NCBI GenBank assembly: GCA_965228475.1 | Contig: OZ245817.1 | Location: 3,040,001-3,104,000, forward strand | Direction of reading: 5' to 3' | DNA: 64,000 bases | DNA from: Myxococcota bacterium | GTDB lineage: Bacteria; Myxococcota_A; UBA9160; JAFDDA01 | In this document: one piece after another, positions 18,234 through 33,413 of the stretch | Position numbering within the stretch: the first letter of the stretch is position 1 | Layout: every line of letters begins with the position of its first letter | Made by a program: the position numbers and the translations under genes | The notes under the pieces: generated by a model | What the model was told of the DNA's origin: nothing | Databases searched by the model: none | Seen by the model: the letters and a program-made list of their open reading frames with translations, nothing else

Positions 18234-18385
18234 GGGGCGCCGGGAGAGCAATCGCCATGCCAGCGCCCGGTCCCCTGAAGCGCCGCCCCGCCGCGGCGCG
18301 ACCGGGAGGCTTCGCGCTCGGCGTCGCCCGCCGTTCGCGCGGACATCGCCCGGCGCGCCCCACCCCCCTGCAATTCTTCTTGCGG

Positions 18386-29327: not shown

Positions 29328-29980
29328 ACGTACTCCGCGCCGTGCTCTGGAAGGATCTCCTTGCCGAGTGGCGAAGCCGCGACCGCCTGCCCGCCATGCT
29401 GGTCTTCGCCCTGCTGACGGTCCTCGTGCTGCGCTTCTCCCAGCCCCCGGGTGAGGGCGCCGGCGCGGCGCCGGGCCTCCTGTGGGTCGCCTACGTCTTC
29501 GCCGCCGTGCTCGGCATGAACCGCGGCTTCGCCCTCGAACTCGAGAACGAGGCGCTCGCCGGCCTCGCCCTGGCCCCCGTCGACCGCGGCTGGATCTACC
29601 TCGGCAAGTTCCTCGCGAACGTCCTCCTGCTCGGCATCGCCCAGGCGACGACCGCGGTCTTCTTCGCCGTGCTGTTCGACGTCGATCTGCTCGGCGTCGC
29701 GGCGCCCTTCCTCGGCGTGGCCCTGCTCGGCGCCATCGGGCTCTCGGCAGCCGGCACCCTGTTCGCCGGCATCGCCGTCCGCACCCGCTACCGCGAGGTC
29801 ATGCTCCCCCTCCTGCTCTTTCCGCTGCTCGTCCCGCTGCTCGTCGGCGCGGTCCAGGCGACGGCCTCGCTGCTCGAGGGCGAGGGGGTCGACGGCAGCG
29901 CGCTCCAGCTCCTGGCCGTCTACGACGCCGTGTTTCTGATAGCCTCCACCATTCTCTTCGAGTACGTGCTGGACGAATGA
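29324..29980 (+). CDS. ccmB: Heme exporter protein CcmB
   Basis: WKDLLAEWRSR, PGLLW, REVMLPLLLFPL. Confidence 0.92.
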   Translation: MNVLRAVLWKDLLAEWRSRDRLPAMLVFALLTVLVLRFSQPPGEGAGAAPGLLWVAYVFAAVLGMNRGFALELENEALAGLALAPVDRGWIYLGKFLANVLLLGIAQATTAVFFAVLFDVDLLGVAAPFLGVALLGAIGLSAAGTLFAGIAVRTRYREVMLPLLLFPLLVPLLVGAVQATASLLEGEGVDGSALQLLAVYDAVFLIASTILFEYVLDE

Positions 29981-30708
29981 CGCCTTCGACCCCTCCGATC
30001 GACGCCTCCGACAACGCCGTGGAACGGCTCGCCCGCGCCGCACAGCGCCCGACCGGCGTCGTGCTGGCGATGCTCGTCGTGTGGATGAGCTGGGTCGTCT
30101 GGAACGCGCCCGCCGACGTCACCCAGGGCGTCGTCTACAAGATCCTGTTCGTGCACGCGCCGGCCGCCTTCGCCGCCTACCTGGGCTTCATCCTCACCGC
30201 GATCGGCGGCGCGCTCTACCTCTGGAAGAACGACGAGCAGTGGGACCGCCTGGCGGTCGCCGCCGCGGAGGTGGGCGTCCTCTTCTGCACGATCAACATC
30301 GTGACCGGGCCGATCTGGGCCAAGGCGATCTGGGGCAAGCCCTGGGTCTGGGATCCGCGGCTGGTCGTGACCGCGCTGCTGTGGGTGACCTACCTCGCCT
30401 ACACCCTGCTGCGCGGCTTCTCGGAAGAAGGGCCGCGGGCGGCGCGCTTCGCCGCGGTCTACGGCCTGGCCGGCGTGCTGCTGATTCCGCTCAACTATTT
30501 CGCCATCGATCTGTTCCAGGGTCGCGGAATGCACCCGGAGAACCTCGAGCGCGGCAGCCTCGGCGTGGGGATCGGCCTCCCCTTTCTCGCCGGCACCCTC
30601 ACGACGCTCACGGCGTTCCTCTTCCTGCTCTGGCTGCGGCTCGACGTCGGTGGCCTGCGCGCGCGTGCGGACCAGCTCGACCGCGAGCGGTGGGAGGCGG
30701 AGGCGTGA
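29977..30708 (+). CDS. ccmC: Heme exporter protein CcmC
   Basis: QG..YKILFVHAP, TGPIWAKAIWGKPWVWDPRL (WWD motif), MHP. Confidence 0.94.
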   Translation: MTPSTPPIDASDNAVERLARAAQRPTGVVLAMLVVWMSWVVWNAPADVTQGVVYKILFVHAPAAFAAYLGFILTAIGGALYLWKNDEQWDRLAVAAAEVGVLFCTINIVTGPIWAKAIWGKPWVWDPRLVVTALLWVTYLAYTLLRGFSEEGPRAARFAAVYGLAGVLLIPLNYFAIDLFQGRGMHPENLERGSLGVGIGLPFLAGTLTTLTAFLFLLWLRLDVGGLRARADQLDRERWEAEA

Positions 30709-30833
30709 CCTGGGTCGTTGCTGCGTACGCGGTCGCCTTCGGCGGCGCCGCGCTCTACGGATTGCACCTCGTCCGCTCCCGATCGGCGCTCCGTAAGGCC
30801 TTGAGAGACGGGCGGAATCGAGATGGCAGTTGA
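30705..30833 (+). CDS. ccmD: Heme exporter protein CcmD (42 aa)
   Basis: GTGA overlap with ccmC. MTWVVAAYAVAFGGAALYGLHL followed by a basic tail is typical CcmD topology. Confidence 0.75.
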   Translation: MTWVVAAYAVAFGGAALYGLHLVRSRSALRKALRDGRNRDGS

Positions 30834-30859
30834 CAGCCACGGGCGGGGCTCGGTATAAC
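30830..30859 (+). promoter_or_regulatory. Near-consensus sigma70 promoter
   Basis: TTGACA (30830-35)-N18-TATAAC (30854-59), the closest match to consensus I found in the window. Confidence 0.72.
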
Positions 30860-30864
30860 GGCAG

Positions 30865-31347
30865 AATCTCGTAAGCTGTGGCTCTAGCTGGTTTTTTCAG
30901 CTCTCGATCGACGCGGTCGGCCCTCGCGAAAGTGGGGCTCGATCGTCGGAACGCAAGGCTTCTGGTATCCGCCCCCCACGGCGCTGCCCTGATCGCCAAC
31001 CGTGCCACCCGCGCCCTGCGCAGGAGGCCGGCCCGGGGGACGGCTCGCAGAAGCAAGGACTGTGAAAGTTCTTGCGCAAGCGATGGCCATCGCACCGGGT
31101 GAGGGTAGTTTGGTTCTCGATTCAAGCCTTCCGGATTCCCAACACACCCGCACGGCGGGACGTAACCTGTGTGTAACGGGGCCGCAGGGGCTCGAGGCAA
31201 CGGCGCGGAACGAGGGTGGTGCTCGTCCGGCCGGGGTGCCGTGGCACGGGGCTTGCCTTAGTACGGTCTGAATTCGCGAGGCCGAGCCCCCACCCACCAC
31301 CGGGGCGGACGTCGGGCTCGACCAGCCGGGAGGCATCCAAGAGGATG
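30865..31347 (+). ncRNA. Candidate large structured non-coding RNA or 5' leader of unknown class
   Basis: About 480 nt with no credible ORF directly behind the promoter. Contains many hairpins (one GAAA-capped) and nested long-range helices; see findings. Confidence 0.5.
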
Positions 31348-31845
31348 GCCAGCATGAAACGTGGCGTCGGATACTGCGAGAACACGGACTGCGAGGACTA
31401 CGCCAAGGGCGTGTTCCTGCTGAACCACGGCGACACCTTCTATTGCCCGCGCTGTCGCCAGCTCGGCAAGGTCGAGAAGGAGCGCGGGTTCTACACCGGC
31501 AACTCCGACGTCTTCAAGGAAGTCCGCGTCGAGTACAACTTCGACCCGATCAACGGCATCTACCGCGAGATCGCGATCGTGCGCGACGAGAGCCTCTGGG
31601 GCCGCAACAACGTCTACACGCTGCAGTCGCCGCTCATCAAGACCGAGAAGCGCGCCCTCAAGGTCGCCGAAGCGATCCTCGCCAACCTGAACCGCTACCG
31701 CGGCCTGCTGAACGGCGACGACATCCCGCGCACCACCGAAATCATCTTGTCCTTCGACGAGCCTTTCGACGAGTTCTCGCGGAAGCTCACCCAGCTCTCG
31801 AAGGAATGGGAGGCCAGCGGCCTGCGAGAGCAGCAGCAGCGCTAG
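31345..31845 (+). CDS. Hypothetical Zn-ribbon protein (C-x4-C...C-x2-C), 163-166 aa
   Basis: Strong GC3 codon bias and normal amino-acid composition. SD-like GGGAGG/GAGG precede ATG 31345/31354. Confidence 0.85.
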   Translation: MASMKRGVGYCENTDCEDYAKGVFLLNHGDTFYCPRCRQLGKVEKERGFYTGNSDVFKEVRVEYNFDPINGIYREIAIVRDESLWGRNNVYTLQSPLIKTEKRALKVAEAILANLNRYRGLLNGDDIPRTTEIILSFDEPFDEFSRKLTQLSKEWEASGLREQQQR

Positions 31846-31896
31846 CCCCCACCGAACGCTTTCTCTCCTTGCCTTCGCCTCGCTGGATGGTCCAGC

Positions 31897-31931
31897 GGGG
31901 CGTTGGTGTTTCTGGGGGGCGTTGGTGTTTC
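31897..31931. repeat. 16-bp direct repeat, two copies (GGGGCGTTGGTGTTTC), period 19
   Basis: Copies at 31897-31912 and 31916-31931, right after hairpin CGCTGGA-TGG-TCCAGCG (31881-31897). Confidence 0.85.
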
Positions 31932-31946
31932 GCGGGCCTTTCAGCG

Positions 31947-32501
31947 CTAGCGGCCGCGGCCGGCGCGCGTCGCGAGGTCGATCCGCATGGTCTCGAGGAT
32001 CGCGCGCGCGCCCTGGTGCTCGGTGCGCTCCACCGGGGCCCCCTCGCGCTCCGCATCCGCGAGCGGCGTCCGGCACCAGGGCAGGAGCGTATCCGGGAGC
32101 GCGTCGCGGGCGAACCAGGAAGCCGCCAGCGACTCCCGCGTCGCGCGCGGGCTGCCGGAGACGACCCGCGCACGGTAGACGCGCACCTCGTGGGGCTTGA
32201 AGCCGGTCCGCACGTAGGTGCCGACGAGCGAGGCCACTTCGATCTCGACGCCGATCTCCTCCCGGACCTCGCGGGCGAGGGCCTCGGCATCCGCTTCGCC
32301 GCGCTCGACGTGGCCCCCCGGGAGTTCCCAGCCGTTCAGGTCGTGGCGCAGCGAGAGCAGGACGCCCTCCGGCCCCTCGATCACGGCCTGGACGATCGAG
32401 AGGGGACGCCCGCCGGGCTTCCGCCCGAGCTTGGCGGCGAGGAAGACCTGGGCCCAGACGATGGGCGCCGTCACCGCGGCGAACAGGCCGCGTAGCGTCA
32501 T
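31947..32501 (-). CDS. NUDIX hydrolase
   Basis: WELPGGHVERGEADAEALAREVREEIG Nudix box. Confidence 0.92.
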   Translation of the reverse strand: MTLRGLFAAVTAPIVWAQVFLAAKLGRKPGGRPLSIVQAVIEGPEGVLLSLRHDLNGWELPGGHVERGEADAEALAREVREEIGVEIEVASLVGTYVRTGFKPHEVRVYRARVVSGSPRATRESLAASWFARDALPDTLLPWCRTPLADAEREGAPVERTEHQGARAILETMRIDLATRAGRGR

Positions 32502-32531
32502 GGCAGGCTCAACCGGGGCCGACGACGGCGA

Positions 32532-33413
32532 TCAATCGATGATCTTGTTGAGCGGGAACTCGACGATGCCCTTGGCGCCGGCTTCGGAGAGCTGCGGGAG
32601 CAGCTCGCGCACGAGGCGCTCCTCGATCACCGTCGTCACCGCGACCCAGGTGTCGTCGGCCAGGGGCGCGATGGTCGGCTTCACGAGGGCCGGGAGCAGC
32701 GCGAGCACCTTCTCGAGGTTCGCGCGCGGCGTATCCATCATCAGGCCGACCCGGTCCGCCGCCGCGATGGCACCGCGCACCAGCATGAGGATCCGCTCCA
32801 TCTTCTGCCGCTTCCACGGGTCCGCTGCGGCCTCTTTGTTGGCGATGAACCGGGGCGTCGAGACCAGCACCGTATCGAGCACGGCCAGGTTGTTCGCGCG
32901 AAGGCTCGATCCCGTCTCGGAGACGTCGACGATGGCGTCGGCGAGCTTCGGGGGCTTCACCTCCGTCGCGCCCCAGGAGAACTCGATCTCGGCGTTCACG
33001 CCGTGCTTCTCGAGGTAGCGGCGGGTCATTCCAACGGCCTCGGTGGCAATCCGCTTGCCCTCGAGGTCCTCGACCTTCGTGATGGGCGAGCCTTCCTTCA
33101 CGGCCAGCACCCAGCGCACCGGGCGATAGTTCGACCACGGGGCGCGCAGGTCGGCGAGCTCGTCGACGTCGGCGCCGTTCTCGAGCACCCAGTCGATGCC
33201 GGTGATCCCCGCGTCCATCGTGCCGTTCTCGACGTAGCGCGCCATCTCCTGCGCACGGATCAGGATGCACTCGATGTCGGGGTCGTCGATGTTCGGGTAG
33301 TAGGAACGCCCGGAGACGTCGATCCGGAAGCCGGCCTTCGCGAAGAGCGAGACCGTCGTGTCCTGGAGGCTTCCCTTCGGAATGCCGAGCTTGAGCTTCT
33401 TGGCTTCGCTCAC
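32532..33413 (-). CDS. hisG: ATP phosphoribosyltransferase (long form)
   Basis: [51 protein letters not shown], plus C-terminal regulatory domain. Confidence 0.95.

Follow-up and report, generated by a model that had tools for sequence, protein, structure and literature searches.

The E. coli glnA gene has two promoters about 115 bp apart, with the sigma-70 promoter glnAp1 lying upstream of the sigma-54 promoter glnAp2, together with enhancer sites for NtrC, whose typical site reads TGCACC-N5-GGTGCA. Sigma-54 enhancers that depend on the face of the DNA helix are known from the NifA UAS of nif promoters and from the XylR/IHF complex at Pu. Here we describe a locus in a 64,000-nt stretch of a Myxococcota genome (the window) in which, as at glnA, a sigma-70-type promoter and, further downstream, a sigma-54 promoter both precede a single gene. 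An earlier note, made from the letters of the window, had proposed that the ~510-nt gap containing these elements encodes a novel large structured non-coding RNA or a cis-regulatory leader. We consider it probable that the gap is instead a composite DNA-level control region with two tandem promoters, serving the zinc-ribbon protein gene downstream. We read it as DNA-level control because its motifs are conserved and strand-specific, because the spacing between them changes in steps of 11 bp and because we found no signal of RNA structure.

The gap extends from the stop codon of a ccmD-like small ORF (42 aa; 30705 to 30833, plus strand), which the ORF list places last in a ccmB/ccmC gene row, to the ATG at 31345. 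The ORF upstream of the ccmD-like ORF corresponds to PF01578, and tblastn located ccmC and ccmD upstream of the zinc-ribbon orthologues in many loci. The TGA stop (30831-30833) falls within the -35 hexamer of the upstream promoter, P1. Over the last 47 nt of the ccmD-like ORF, 45 positions are identical in G001, the same-genus relative that we used for pairwise comparison; the encoded protein is only 52% identical. The earlier description of a TTGACA-N18-TATAAC element followed by a long gap with no credible ORF was borne out by the sequence, the ORF list and the alignment to G001. No conserved ORF was found in the gap; a 74-aa frame at 30878-31102 was considered as a small gene and set aside, as it stops after seven codons in G001.

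P1 (30830 to 30859, plus strand) consists of TTGACA at 30830-35 and TATAAC at 30854-59, separated by an 18-nt spacer, and its hexamers fit the sigma-70-type consensus at 11 of 12 positions. It is the sole occurrence of TTGACA-N16-18-TATAAN in the 5,006,157-bp genome. An alignment of 22 loci from many families showed conservation of GGTTGACA-N17/18-AGTATAAG at this position, and a relaxed P1 pattern occurred on the plus strand of 41 of 76 orthologous loci and on the minus strand of none; in a second set of loci the counts were 17/42 and 0/42. The promoter of the earlier note looks genuine, P1 being near-consensus, conserved and unique in the genome. A consensus promoter scan listed no site within 29500-33000, P1 having been omitted because its -10 element lacks the final T. 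P1 lies directly behind ccmD and most probably gives rise to a long-leader mRNA of the zinc-ribbon gene; judging from the position of the hexamers, transcription would begin near 30866, and a leader transcribed from P1 is likely. In four loci with no sigma-54 motif (L054, L058, L060 and L073), a sigma-70-type promoter stands ~165-195 nt before the ATG, which ties this kind of promoter to the zinc-ribbon gene. At 80% likeness, contigs from four metatranscriptome runs cover only 31305-31960; since the relatives diverge upstream and contigs cannot show transcript ends, this coverage is uninformative on whether the gap is transcribed. Loose contig ends, which have no placement, extend up to ~255 nt before the ATG.

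The second promoter, P2, matches the sigma-54 motif as TGGCACGGGGCTTGC (31242 to 31256, plus strand), with the GG of the -24 element at 31243-44 and the GC of the -12 element at 31255-56, and was identified by this motif and by its conservation. It stands 103 nt before the ATG of the zinc-ribbon gene. The strict motif (TGGCAC-N5-TTGC arrangement) occurs twice in the 64-kb window, against 0.03 occurrences expected, and the sigma-54 motif has 40 matches genome-wide, against ~13 expected. Between positions -340 and -40 the strict motif was present on the plus strand of 44 of 76 loci, with none on the minus strand and none further upstream (0/76 each). When any letter was allowed at the three outer positions (NGGCAY-N5-NTGN), 67 of the 76 loci matched, compared with three on the other strand and four further upstream. 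The second locus set gave 26/42 strict and 38/42 relaxed matches, versus 0/42 on the other strand. All six loci of the sister order keep TGGCAC-N5-TTGG. The -12 element of that order is TTGG and not TTGC, an observation that counts against the sigma-54 reading.

The genome encodes the proteins that such a promoter would require: a single PF04552 match (214.7 bits, in an open frame of 498 aa) represents rpoN, and there are 27 matches to the activator domain PF00158 (Sigma54_activat), 21 of them above 150 bits, with none inside the 64-kb window. P2 would act as an enhancer-dependent sigma-54 promoter of the zinc-ribbon gene, with a transcription start, dependent on rpoN and an activator, predicted near 31267 from the motif position, ~12 nt past the GC of the -12 element. 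The putative 5' UTR of its transcript (31268 to 31344, plus strand) contains the Shine-Dalgarno sequence GGGAGG at 31328-31333, and GGGAGGCATCCG is conserved adjoining the ATG.

Three further conserved boxes lie upstream of P2. Box C (31060 to 31077, plus strand; CTGTGAAAGTTCTTGCGC, consensus CTGCGAC-N5-TTGCG) comprises two YTGCG copies 12 nt apart; its profile matched 40 of 70 loci at E<=0.05, and the TGC was invariant in all 40. Box D (31101 to 31118, plus strand; GAGGGTAGTTTGGTTCTC) is an inverted repeat with the consensus GGGAAG-N4-6-CTTCCCAA. A similar repeat, GGAAR-N2-8-YTTCC, was located upstream of six of the 40 other sigma-54 motifs in the genome, against 0.45 expected, and a close copy of box D lies ~170 bp upstream of the sigma-54 motif at genome position 4080229. 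Box E (31183 to 31201, plus strand; CGCAG-N8-GGCAAC) contains copies of a GCAG/GGCAR motif that follow one another at ~11 nt and keep a constant distance to P2; among 67 loci, the positions of GGCAR/GCCAR copies, counted from the GG of the -24 element, show peaks at -59, -70 and -77 to -80.

Spacing between boxes C, D and E, and from them to P2, shifts only in steps of ~11 bp, the length of one DNA helical turn. The C-to-D spacing was 29-31, 39-43 or 51 in 36 of 36 loci, with none at 32-38 or 44-50, and the distance from box C to P2 clustered at 148, 157-159, 167-171 and 178-180. The Rayleigh test gave a best period of 11.25 (R 0.67), and the same period was recovered in 23 new loci (R 0.66). 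Neither the P2-to-ATG distances (R 0.35) nor the P1-to-C distances (R 0.30) showed such a period, and P1 stands anywhere from 60 to 355 nt away from the conserved boxes. Because the compared loci are related, p-values from the Rayleigh test overstate the significance; what carries the case for phasing is that the spacing class changed independently at least four times across families. The ~11-bp steps suggest that the boxes act as enhancer DNA to which proteins bind, and not as RNA. The three boxes (31060-31201), 40-185 bp upstream of P2, may bind an enhancer-binding activator, with box C a candidate activator site and box D a candidate protein-binding site, and perhaps also a bending protein; proteins bound there would need to keep a fixed helix face relative to P2.

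The expectation of a large structured RNA was not supported by any of the structural comparisons. Rfam returned no match in the window at the gathering score; at E<=10 the gap region matched just one model, that of a eukaryotic lncRNA, on the opposite strand and at chance level (E 2.6), and there were no matches at E<=1 over 20 orthologous loci. The minimum free energy of 30865-31347 was -224.3 kcal/mol, compared with -221.6 +/- 6.7 for dinucleotide shuffles (z -0.41), and 34 of 100 shuffles were at least as stable; the minus strand gave z -1.29. Folding energy thus showed no excess over the shuffled controls that the earlier note had recommended. Across 29 orthologues the mean z was -0.45 and the median -0.18; six of the 29 regions folded better than their shuffles (z < -2). 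Perfect stems of 6, 7, 8 and 9 bp numbered 57, 20, 7 and 2, whereas shuffles averaged 50.0, 14.2, 3.9 and 1.0, and the observed counts were reached in 71, 45, 50 and 75 of 300 shuffles, respectively. The earlier caution that GC-rich DNA forms short helices by chance applies here.

Covariation upstream of the orthologues was absent in the three hairpins tested: paired states made up 71.9% for boxes C and D (71.7% in shuffles) and 54.0% for box B (52.8% in shuffles). RNAalifold consensus structures contained four and zero pairs in two alignments of orthologous loci. The column pairs that scored highest as covarying were Y/R columns without stacking and were rejected. An alignment of 30 loci, from which 11 loci that were too long or aberrant, all with P1, had been left out (L015, L060, L073, L036, L038, L049, L046, L061, L066, L051 and L056), yielded no long-range helices beyond four 4-bp matches of TTGC/TGCG with GCAG, both of them conserved motifs; its minus strand and five column shuffles yielded no helices. 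The MAFFT alignments were poor in the variable parts, where structure could be missed.

All ten of the proposed helices that we checked pair fully in this genome, but they occur in chance-level numbers and are mostly broken in G001, which keeps 0-6 of their 5-9 pairs and has three compensatory changes in all. One arm of the 9-bp cross-domain pseudoknot, GTGGCACGG at 31241-49, is the -24 box of the sigma-54 promoter. The GAGGCAA/TTGCCTT helix that was to close a second domain likewise dissolves into control motifs, TTGCCTT (31253-59) being the -12 box and GAGGCAA the right half of box E, to which the -12 box happens to be complementary. The CGAGCCC/GGGCTCG stem keeps three of seven pairs in G001. 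A CATCC/GGATG hairpin said to bury the Shine-Dalgarno sequence and the ATG has 5/5 pairs in only 19 of 76 loci and is uncompensated where the context of the ATG differs, and it was rejected. The many helices of this GC-rich gap arise from chance pairing, in some cases of promoter with enhancer motifs. Of the cis-regulatory leader idea, the structured-RNA part fell away; what stands is that the gap is cis-regulatory and stays with the zinc-ribbon gene across the whole clade, and that a leader from P1 is likely.

Two conserved elements immediately behind P1 bear on what its transcript may be. Box A, in the early transcribed region (30860 to 30900, plus strand), was recognized in alignments by CGTAAG, a GTTCG-like element and a T-run at 30892-30897. 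It has no conserved hairpin (mean z -0.11, n=33; zero RNAalifold pairs). Stability lends no support to a terminator at box A. The GAAA-capped stem of the earlier note (30913 to 30946, plus strand) lies where relatives have box B, an element of C-rich and G-rich sequence (CCCCACCCC..GGGG..GTGTGCGCG in alignments), although homology between the two is uncertain and most of 30913-30946 is deleted or unaligned in G001. Boxes A and B are conserved in sequence and have no assigned DNA-level role in the two-promoter reading.

An unlikely alternative is that the P1 transcript functions as a regulatory RNA, a ~480-nt leader in which boxes A and B, and perhaps C-E, are read by a protein, for example by the zinc-ribbon protein in feedback control of its own mRNA, and that the sigma-54 promoter is merely embedded in it. 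Of all sites in the genome, P1 comes closest to the sigma-70-type consensus, boxes A and B are conserved behind it across families, P1, A and B remain with the gene where the sigma-54 module is missing (L060), and several pairings in boxes D and C use G-U, which would fit the plus strand only. These points are set against the lack of covariation in boxes B, C and D, the near-empty RNAalifold consensus, mean folding z-scores close to zero in the orthologues and in the 5' domain, and alignment-wide "helices" that are all 4-bp matches between conserved motifs; moreover, spacing quantised at ~11 nt has no obvious rationale in RNA, and boxes C and D are retained in a genus without P1. We regard as distinctly unlikely the bolder combination in which the P1 leader (~400-480 nt) is a new kind of regulatory RNA, with boxes A and B read by a protein, possibly the zinc-ribbon protein, and the same DNA doubles as a helically phased sigma-54 enhancer. 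If true, one sequence would carry two superimposed codes coupling both promoters.

P1 might also make a separate short RNA, whose end would be the T-run ~30-35 nt downstream or else the hairpin of box D, from an sRNA gene that merely neighbours the zinc-ribbon gene. The T-run does begin at a nearly fixed distance from the -10 element (32-36 nt in 21 of the 24 loci that have one), a hairpin abuts it in some relatives (e.g., L019, L037, L041, L075 and L079), and several loci have a T-rich stretch after box D. Yet the sequence preceding the T-run has no excess stability over shuffles, the hairpin there is weak in this genome (-6.0 kcal/mol) compared with the gene's own 12-bp GC-rich terminator, a profile of P1 plus box A has a single match in the genome, and the shift of the sigma-70-type promoter toward the gene in lineages with no sigma-54 motif is what would be expected of the gene's own promoter. 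We therefore hold a short RNA to be very improbable. A divergent 6S RNA, or another large stable RNA missed by the Rfam models, is scarcely credible. RF00013 finds nothing in this closed, 96%-complete genome, in which RNase P, tmRNA and SRP RNA were found elsewhere, and so strong a promoter is typical of stable RNA genes; against this, the stretch downstream with which the 5' end pairs best differs in position among 24 orthologues, neither a rod nor a bubble shows up in the consensus, folding energy has no excess here or in the orthologues, and the distance from P1 to the boxes is variable. On these grounds 6S RNA was rejected. The composite control region with two tandem promoters remains our preferred reading.

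The presumed target of both promoters, recognized as a conserved ORF, encodes a zinc-ribbon protein of 166 aa (31345 to 31845, plus strand) and is followed by an intrinsic terminator at 31876-31902. A match to the protein is present in 146 of 151 genomes from the order, most often at 91-97% identity, and in 48 of 251 genomes of the phylum, all in one class; this class consists of uncultured, mostly marine Myxococcota. Hundreds of contigs in marine-sediment RNA libraries match the gene. No Pfam or NCBIfam family scored above its cut-off, the match to an S27a-type zinc ribbon being weak and below it. The AlphaFold2 model (mean pLDDT 59.0) was too poor for a fold search, and the ESM Atlas returned only unnamed Myxococcota clusters. 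In titles and the opening lines of abstracts, we found nothing on this gene or locus. A gene with the best sigma-70-type promoter of its genome and a sigma-54 promoter upstream is worth study. The locus also removes a false lead, showing how GC-rich intergenic DNA yields convincing helices, two of the best of which are here promoter motifs.

Set beside described systems, the locus resembles autoregulatory ribosomal-protein leaders and cspA-type leaders in that a strong promoter stands a long way before a small gene that is highly conserved and seems to be strongly expressed, and in that the leader begins with conserved sequence, but it differs from them in having no covarying helix, excess stability or Rfam match. 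With 6S RNA (RF00013) it shares a strong sigma-70-type promoter and the lack of an ORF, in a genome with no match to the 6S model; unlike 6S RNA, it has no conserved closing stem or central bubble. The likeness to glnA extends to candidate activator sites that precede the sigma-54 promoter and so stand in the path of transcription from the sigma-70-type promoter. However, the promoters are ~410 bp apart here, the boxes lie downstream of P1 and not over it, the target is an uncharacterised zinc-ribbon protein, and the locus is known from sequence alone. The box sequences that we set beside glnA are CTGCGAC-N5-TTGCG, GGGAAG-N4-6-CTTCCC and GCAG-N7-GGCAG. As at the NifA UAS and Pu, the sites stand 60-190 bp upstream of a -24/-12 promoter at distances that change by whole helical turns, the difference being that phasing is seen here in natural variation among 36 + 23 loci and not in spacing mutants. 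Indels among ~60 uncultured genomes make the locus a clean, naturally occurring case of helical phasing in a candidate sigma-54 enhancer.

The gap (30834-31344) lies between a row of cytochrome c maturation genes, which closes with ccmC (PF01578) and a 42-aa ccmD-like ORF ending at 30833, and a plus-strand gene (31345-31845) for a 166-aa protein that carries a four-cysteine zinc ribbon at its N terminus. The DNA of the window is GC-rich and comes from an uncultured-type Myxococcota whose genome has 70.5% G+C. The zinc-ribbon protein had no above-cut-off match in Pfam or NCBIfam, its AlphaFold2 model was poor (pLDDT 59), and its database relatives were all MAG records labeled Myxococcota or Deltaproteobacteria. 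We found it in 146 of the 151 genomes of the order, including all 91 high-quality ones, with identities mostly of 91-97%. It was also present in 48 of 251 genomes sampled across the phylum; apart from members of the order, these came only from one sister family within its class (6/6), and no other class of that sample had it. Four RNA libraries made from marine sediment in separate studies yielded contigs that cover the coding region at 80-100% likeness (361-678 contigs per run, which show neither level nor ends); these hundreds of matches indicate that many relatives of the gene are present in the libraries. Directly behind the gene, a GC-rich 12-bp hairpin and its interrupted T-run (31876-31902, plus strand) make up the likely terminator of the unit, and the next gene, encoding a NUDIX protein (31947-32501), is on the opposite strand. 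The gap is much less conserved than the protein. When 30800-31360 was searched as DNA, a same-genus relative (G001) alone aligned past the last ~40 nt, and did so in blocks.

Alignment of the 160 nt preceding the ATG in 31 loci revealed a common TGGCAC-N5-TTGC, the -24/-12 consensus of sigma-54 promoters. This motif lies at 31242-31256 (P2). Only 0.03 matches were expected in the 64 kb, and there are two. The other, at 18248-18262 on the minus strand (TGGCATGGCGATTGC, then TCTC), is probably another sigma-54 promoter. Of the loci from 76 genomes, our own included, 44 had the strict motif on the coding strand between 40 and 340 nt ahead of the ATG, and none had it on the other strand or further upstream. 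The relaxed form NGGCAY-N5-NTGN was found in 67 of the 76, compared to three on the other strand and four further upstream; of the nine loci lacking it, four showed GGCGC or, at -12, TCGC as recognisable variants, and the remaining five showed none. A second set of 42 loci, left from 80 fetched after removal of 37 duplicates of earlier loci and one that was too short, gave 26 strict and 38 relaxed matches and none on the other strand, and all six loci of the sister order carried TGGCAC-N5-TTGG. The genome has one rpoN and ~21 strong activator genes. It contains 40 strict motifs, compared to ~13 expected from composition, most of which go on as the usual TTGCT or TTGCA.

A second promoter stands at the head of the gap. 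The earlier note had singled out TTGACA (30830-30835), an 18-nt spacer and TATAAC (30854-30859), here called P1, as the strongest-looking promoter, followed by DNA without a credible ORF. The hexamers are present as described, and no ORF in the gap is conserved. A profile of the block around these hexamers in our genome and G001 matched 22 of 70 loci (E<=0.011), whose alignment reads GAAATC..GGTTGACA-N17/18-AGTATAAG, followed by a conserved early transcribed box (box A) and a T-run. Strict TTGACA-N16-18-TATAA occurred on the coding strand in 30 of 76 loci and a relaxed pattern in 41, compared to none on the other strand for either, and TTGACA-N16-18-TATAAN occurs once in the whole 5.0-Mb genome, at P1. 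Because the pattern is strand-specific among loci and single in the genome, P1 is real-looking, unique and conserved. The stop codon of the ccmD-like ORF falls inside its TTGACA, and the last 47 nt of this ORF (window 30794-30835) are identical to G001 at 45 of 47 positions, while identity at the protein level is just 52%; this 3' end is kept as DNA, as the upstream part and -35 element of P1. In L054, L058, L060 and L073, which have no sigma-54 motif, a sigma-70-type promoter lies ~165-195 nt ahead of the ATG, and one genus without P1 has a TTGACA box downstream of its sigma-54 motif, indicating that the sigma-70-type promoter belongs with the zinc-ribbon gene and not with some separate RNA gene. 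In that genus, which belongs to another family (L021-L027), no P1 follows ccmC/ccmD; the box lies ~150 nt before the ATG within a conserved GAGTTGACAGTCGAGGGTCGACCGTCGCAGGATCC, with a palindrome in the spacer, which could be a sigma-70-type promoter in a new place, accompanied by an operator.

Three conserved stretches lie upstream of P2: box C (31060-31077, consensus CTGCGAC-N5-TTGCG), box D (31101-31118, GGGAAG-N4-6-CTTCCCAA) and box E (31183-31201, GCAG/GGCAR copies ~11 nt apart). No element of the gap is more widespread than boxes C and D together, which had profile matches in 40 of 70 loci, the P1-less genus included. C and D were 29-31, 39-43 or 51 nt apart in all 36 loci, and the distance from C to the -24 GG clustered at 148, 157-159, 167-171 and 178-180 nt and further on. 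By the Rayleigh statistic the strongest period was 11.25 (R 0.67 from C to P2 and 0.91 from C to D), although p-values for this phasing are only indicative because related genomes are not independent; 23 new loci again gave 11.25 as the best period (R 0.66). No such period was seen from P2 to the ATG (R 0.35) or from P1 to C (R 0.30-0.35). When loci were matched to families, the C-D spacing was short in three families and long in a fourth lineage, and this spread of spacing classes points to several independent indels, all in whole turns. Relative to the GG, GGCAR/GCCAR copies were most frequent at -59, -70 and -77 to -80. In the sister order, locus L086 carries an enlarged version of box E: four consecutive CGCAGGA copies (GTGCAGGACGCGCGCAGGACCCACGCAGGACCCACGCAGGAGG) some 120-165 nt ahead of the sigma-54 motif, with an 11-nt spacing between the last three. 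Elsewhere in our genome, box-D-like GGAAR-N2-8-YTTCC repeats were found 99-179 nt upstream of six of the 40 strict sigma-54 motifs, compared to 0.45 expected (motifs at 963998, 1511012, 1746498, 2698165, 4080229 (+) and 4417624 (-)). One of the six is a near copy of the relatives' box D, and a bending protein or a shared activator may use such repeats as a common site.

The earlier note had read the DNA behind this promoter (within 30830-31347) as a structured non-coding RNA of ~480 nt or a cis-regulatory leader. All ten of its helices that we checked do pair fully in this genome, but they are no more than chance would give: perfect 6- to 9-bp stems were within the shuffle range, and the folding energy of 30865-31347 was unexceptional against dinucleotide shuffles, 34 of 100 of which were at least as stable (z -0.41; other strand, z -1.29). 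In G001 the helices were mostly broken, with 2/5, 2/9, 4/5, 3/7, 0/7, 4/8, 4/6, 6/7, 5/9 and 2/5 pairs kept and three compensatory changes in all. One arm of the supposed 9-bp pseudoknot, GTGGCACGG, is the -24 box of P2, and the arm TTGCCTT of a helix said to close a second domain is its -12 box. Rfam 15 gave no match in the window at gathering score, nothing credible in the region at E<=10 and no match in 20 orthologous loci at E<=1. RNase P, tmRNA and SRP RNA were found elsewhere in this closed, 96%-complete genome, and 6S RNA (RF00013) gave no match across it at E<=1; the best pairing of the 5' end fell at inconsistent places among orthologues, which also argues against a 6S-like rod.

A leader RNA made from P1 could nevertheless act at the RNA level, and the main reason to keep this alternative lies in boxes A and B and in the T-run that stands at a fixed distance behind P1. 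Against it, we found no conserved structure between P1 and P2. Among 29 orthologues of this stretch (from 41 P1 loci, leaving out those longer than ~380 nt and three aberrant ones), z averaged -0.45 (median -0.18; six below -2), and the first ~55 nt averaged -0.11 (n=33). RNAalifold yielded one 4-bp hairpin with no compensatory change for 15 whole stretches and no pair for the first 110 nt of 28 loci. Among all column pairs of a 30-sequence alignment there were four 4-bp matches only, between conserved TTGC/TGCG and GCAG motifs, and none of this type on the other strand or after column shuffling. Candidate hairpins were paired as often when partners were shuffled among sequences (boxes C and D, 71.9% vs. 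71.7%; box B, 54.0% vs. 52.8%). An RNA-level role for the leader seems unlikely to us.

In the NtrC, NifA and XylR systems, enhancer sites are spaced by the helical repeat of DNA, stand at a set position from a sigma-54 promoter and occur again at other promoters of this type; RNA helices would be expected to do none of this. From the sequence comparisons, we lean toward reading the gap as a tandem sigma-70/sigma-54 control region with an enhancer rather than as a structured RNA. Such a region is an ordinary kind of element, new as a member and nicely phased, and it fronts an unusually conserved protein of no assigned family. Judging by the motifs, sigma-54 holoenzyme would fire P2, and an activator on boxes E and/or C and D would contact it by looping, so that the sites must face the promoter. 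P1 would provide sigma-70-dependent transcription of the zinc-ribbon gene via a long leader, and proteins bound to boxes C-E could also impede transcripts coming from P1, as in the glnAp1/glnAp2 region of E. coli.
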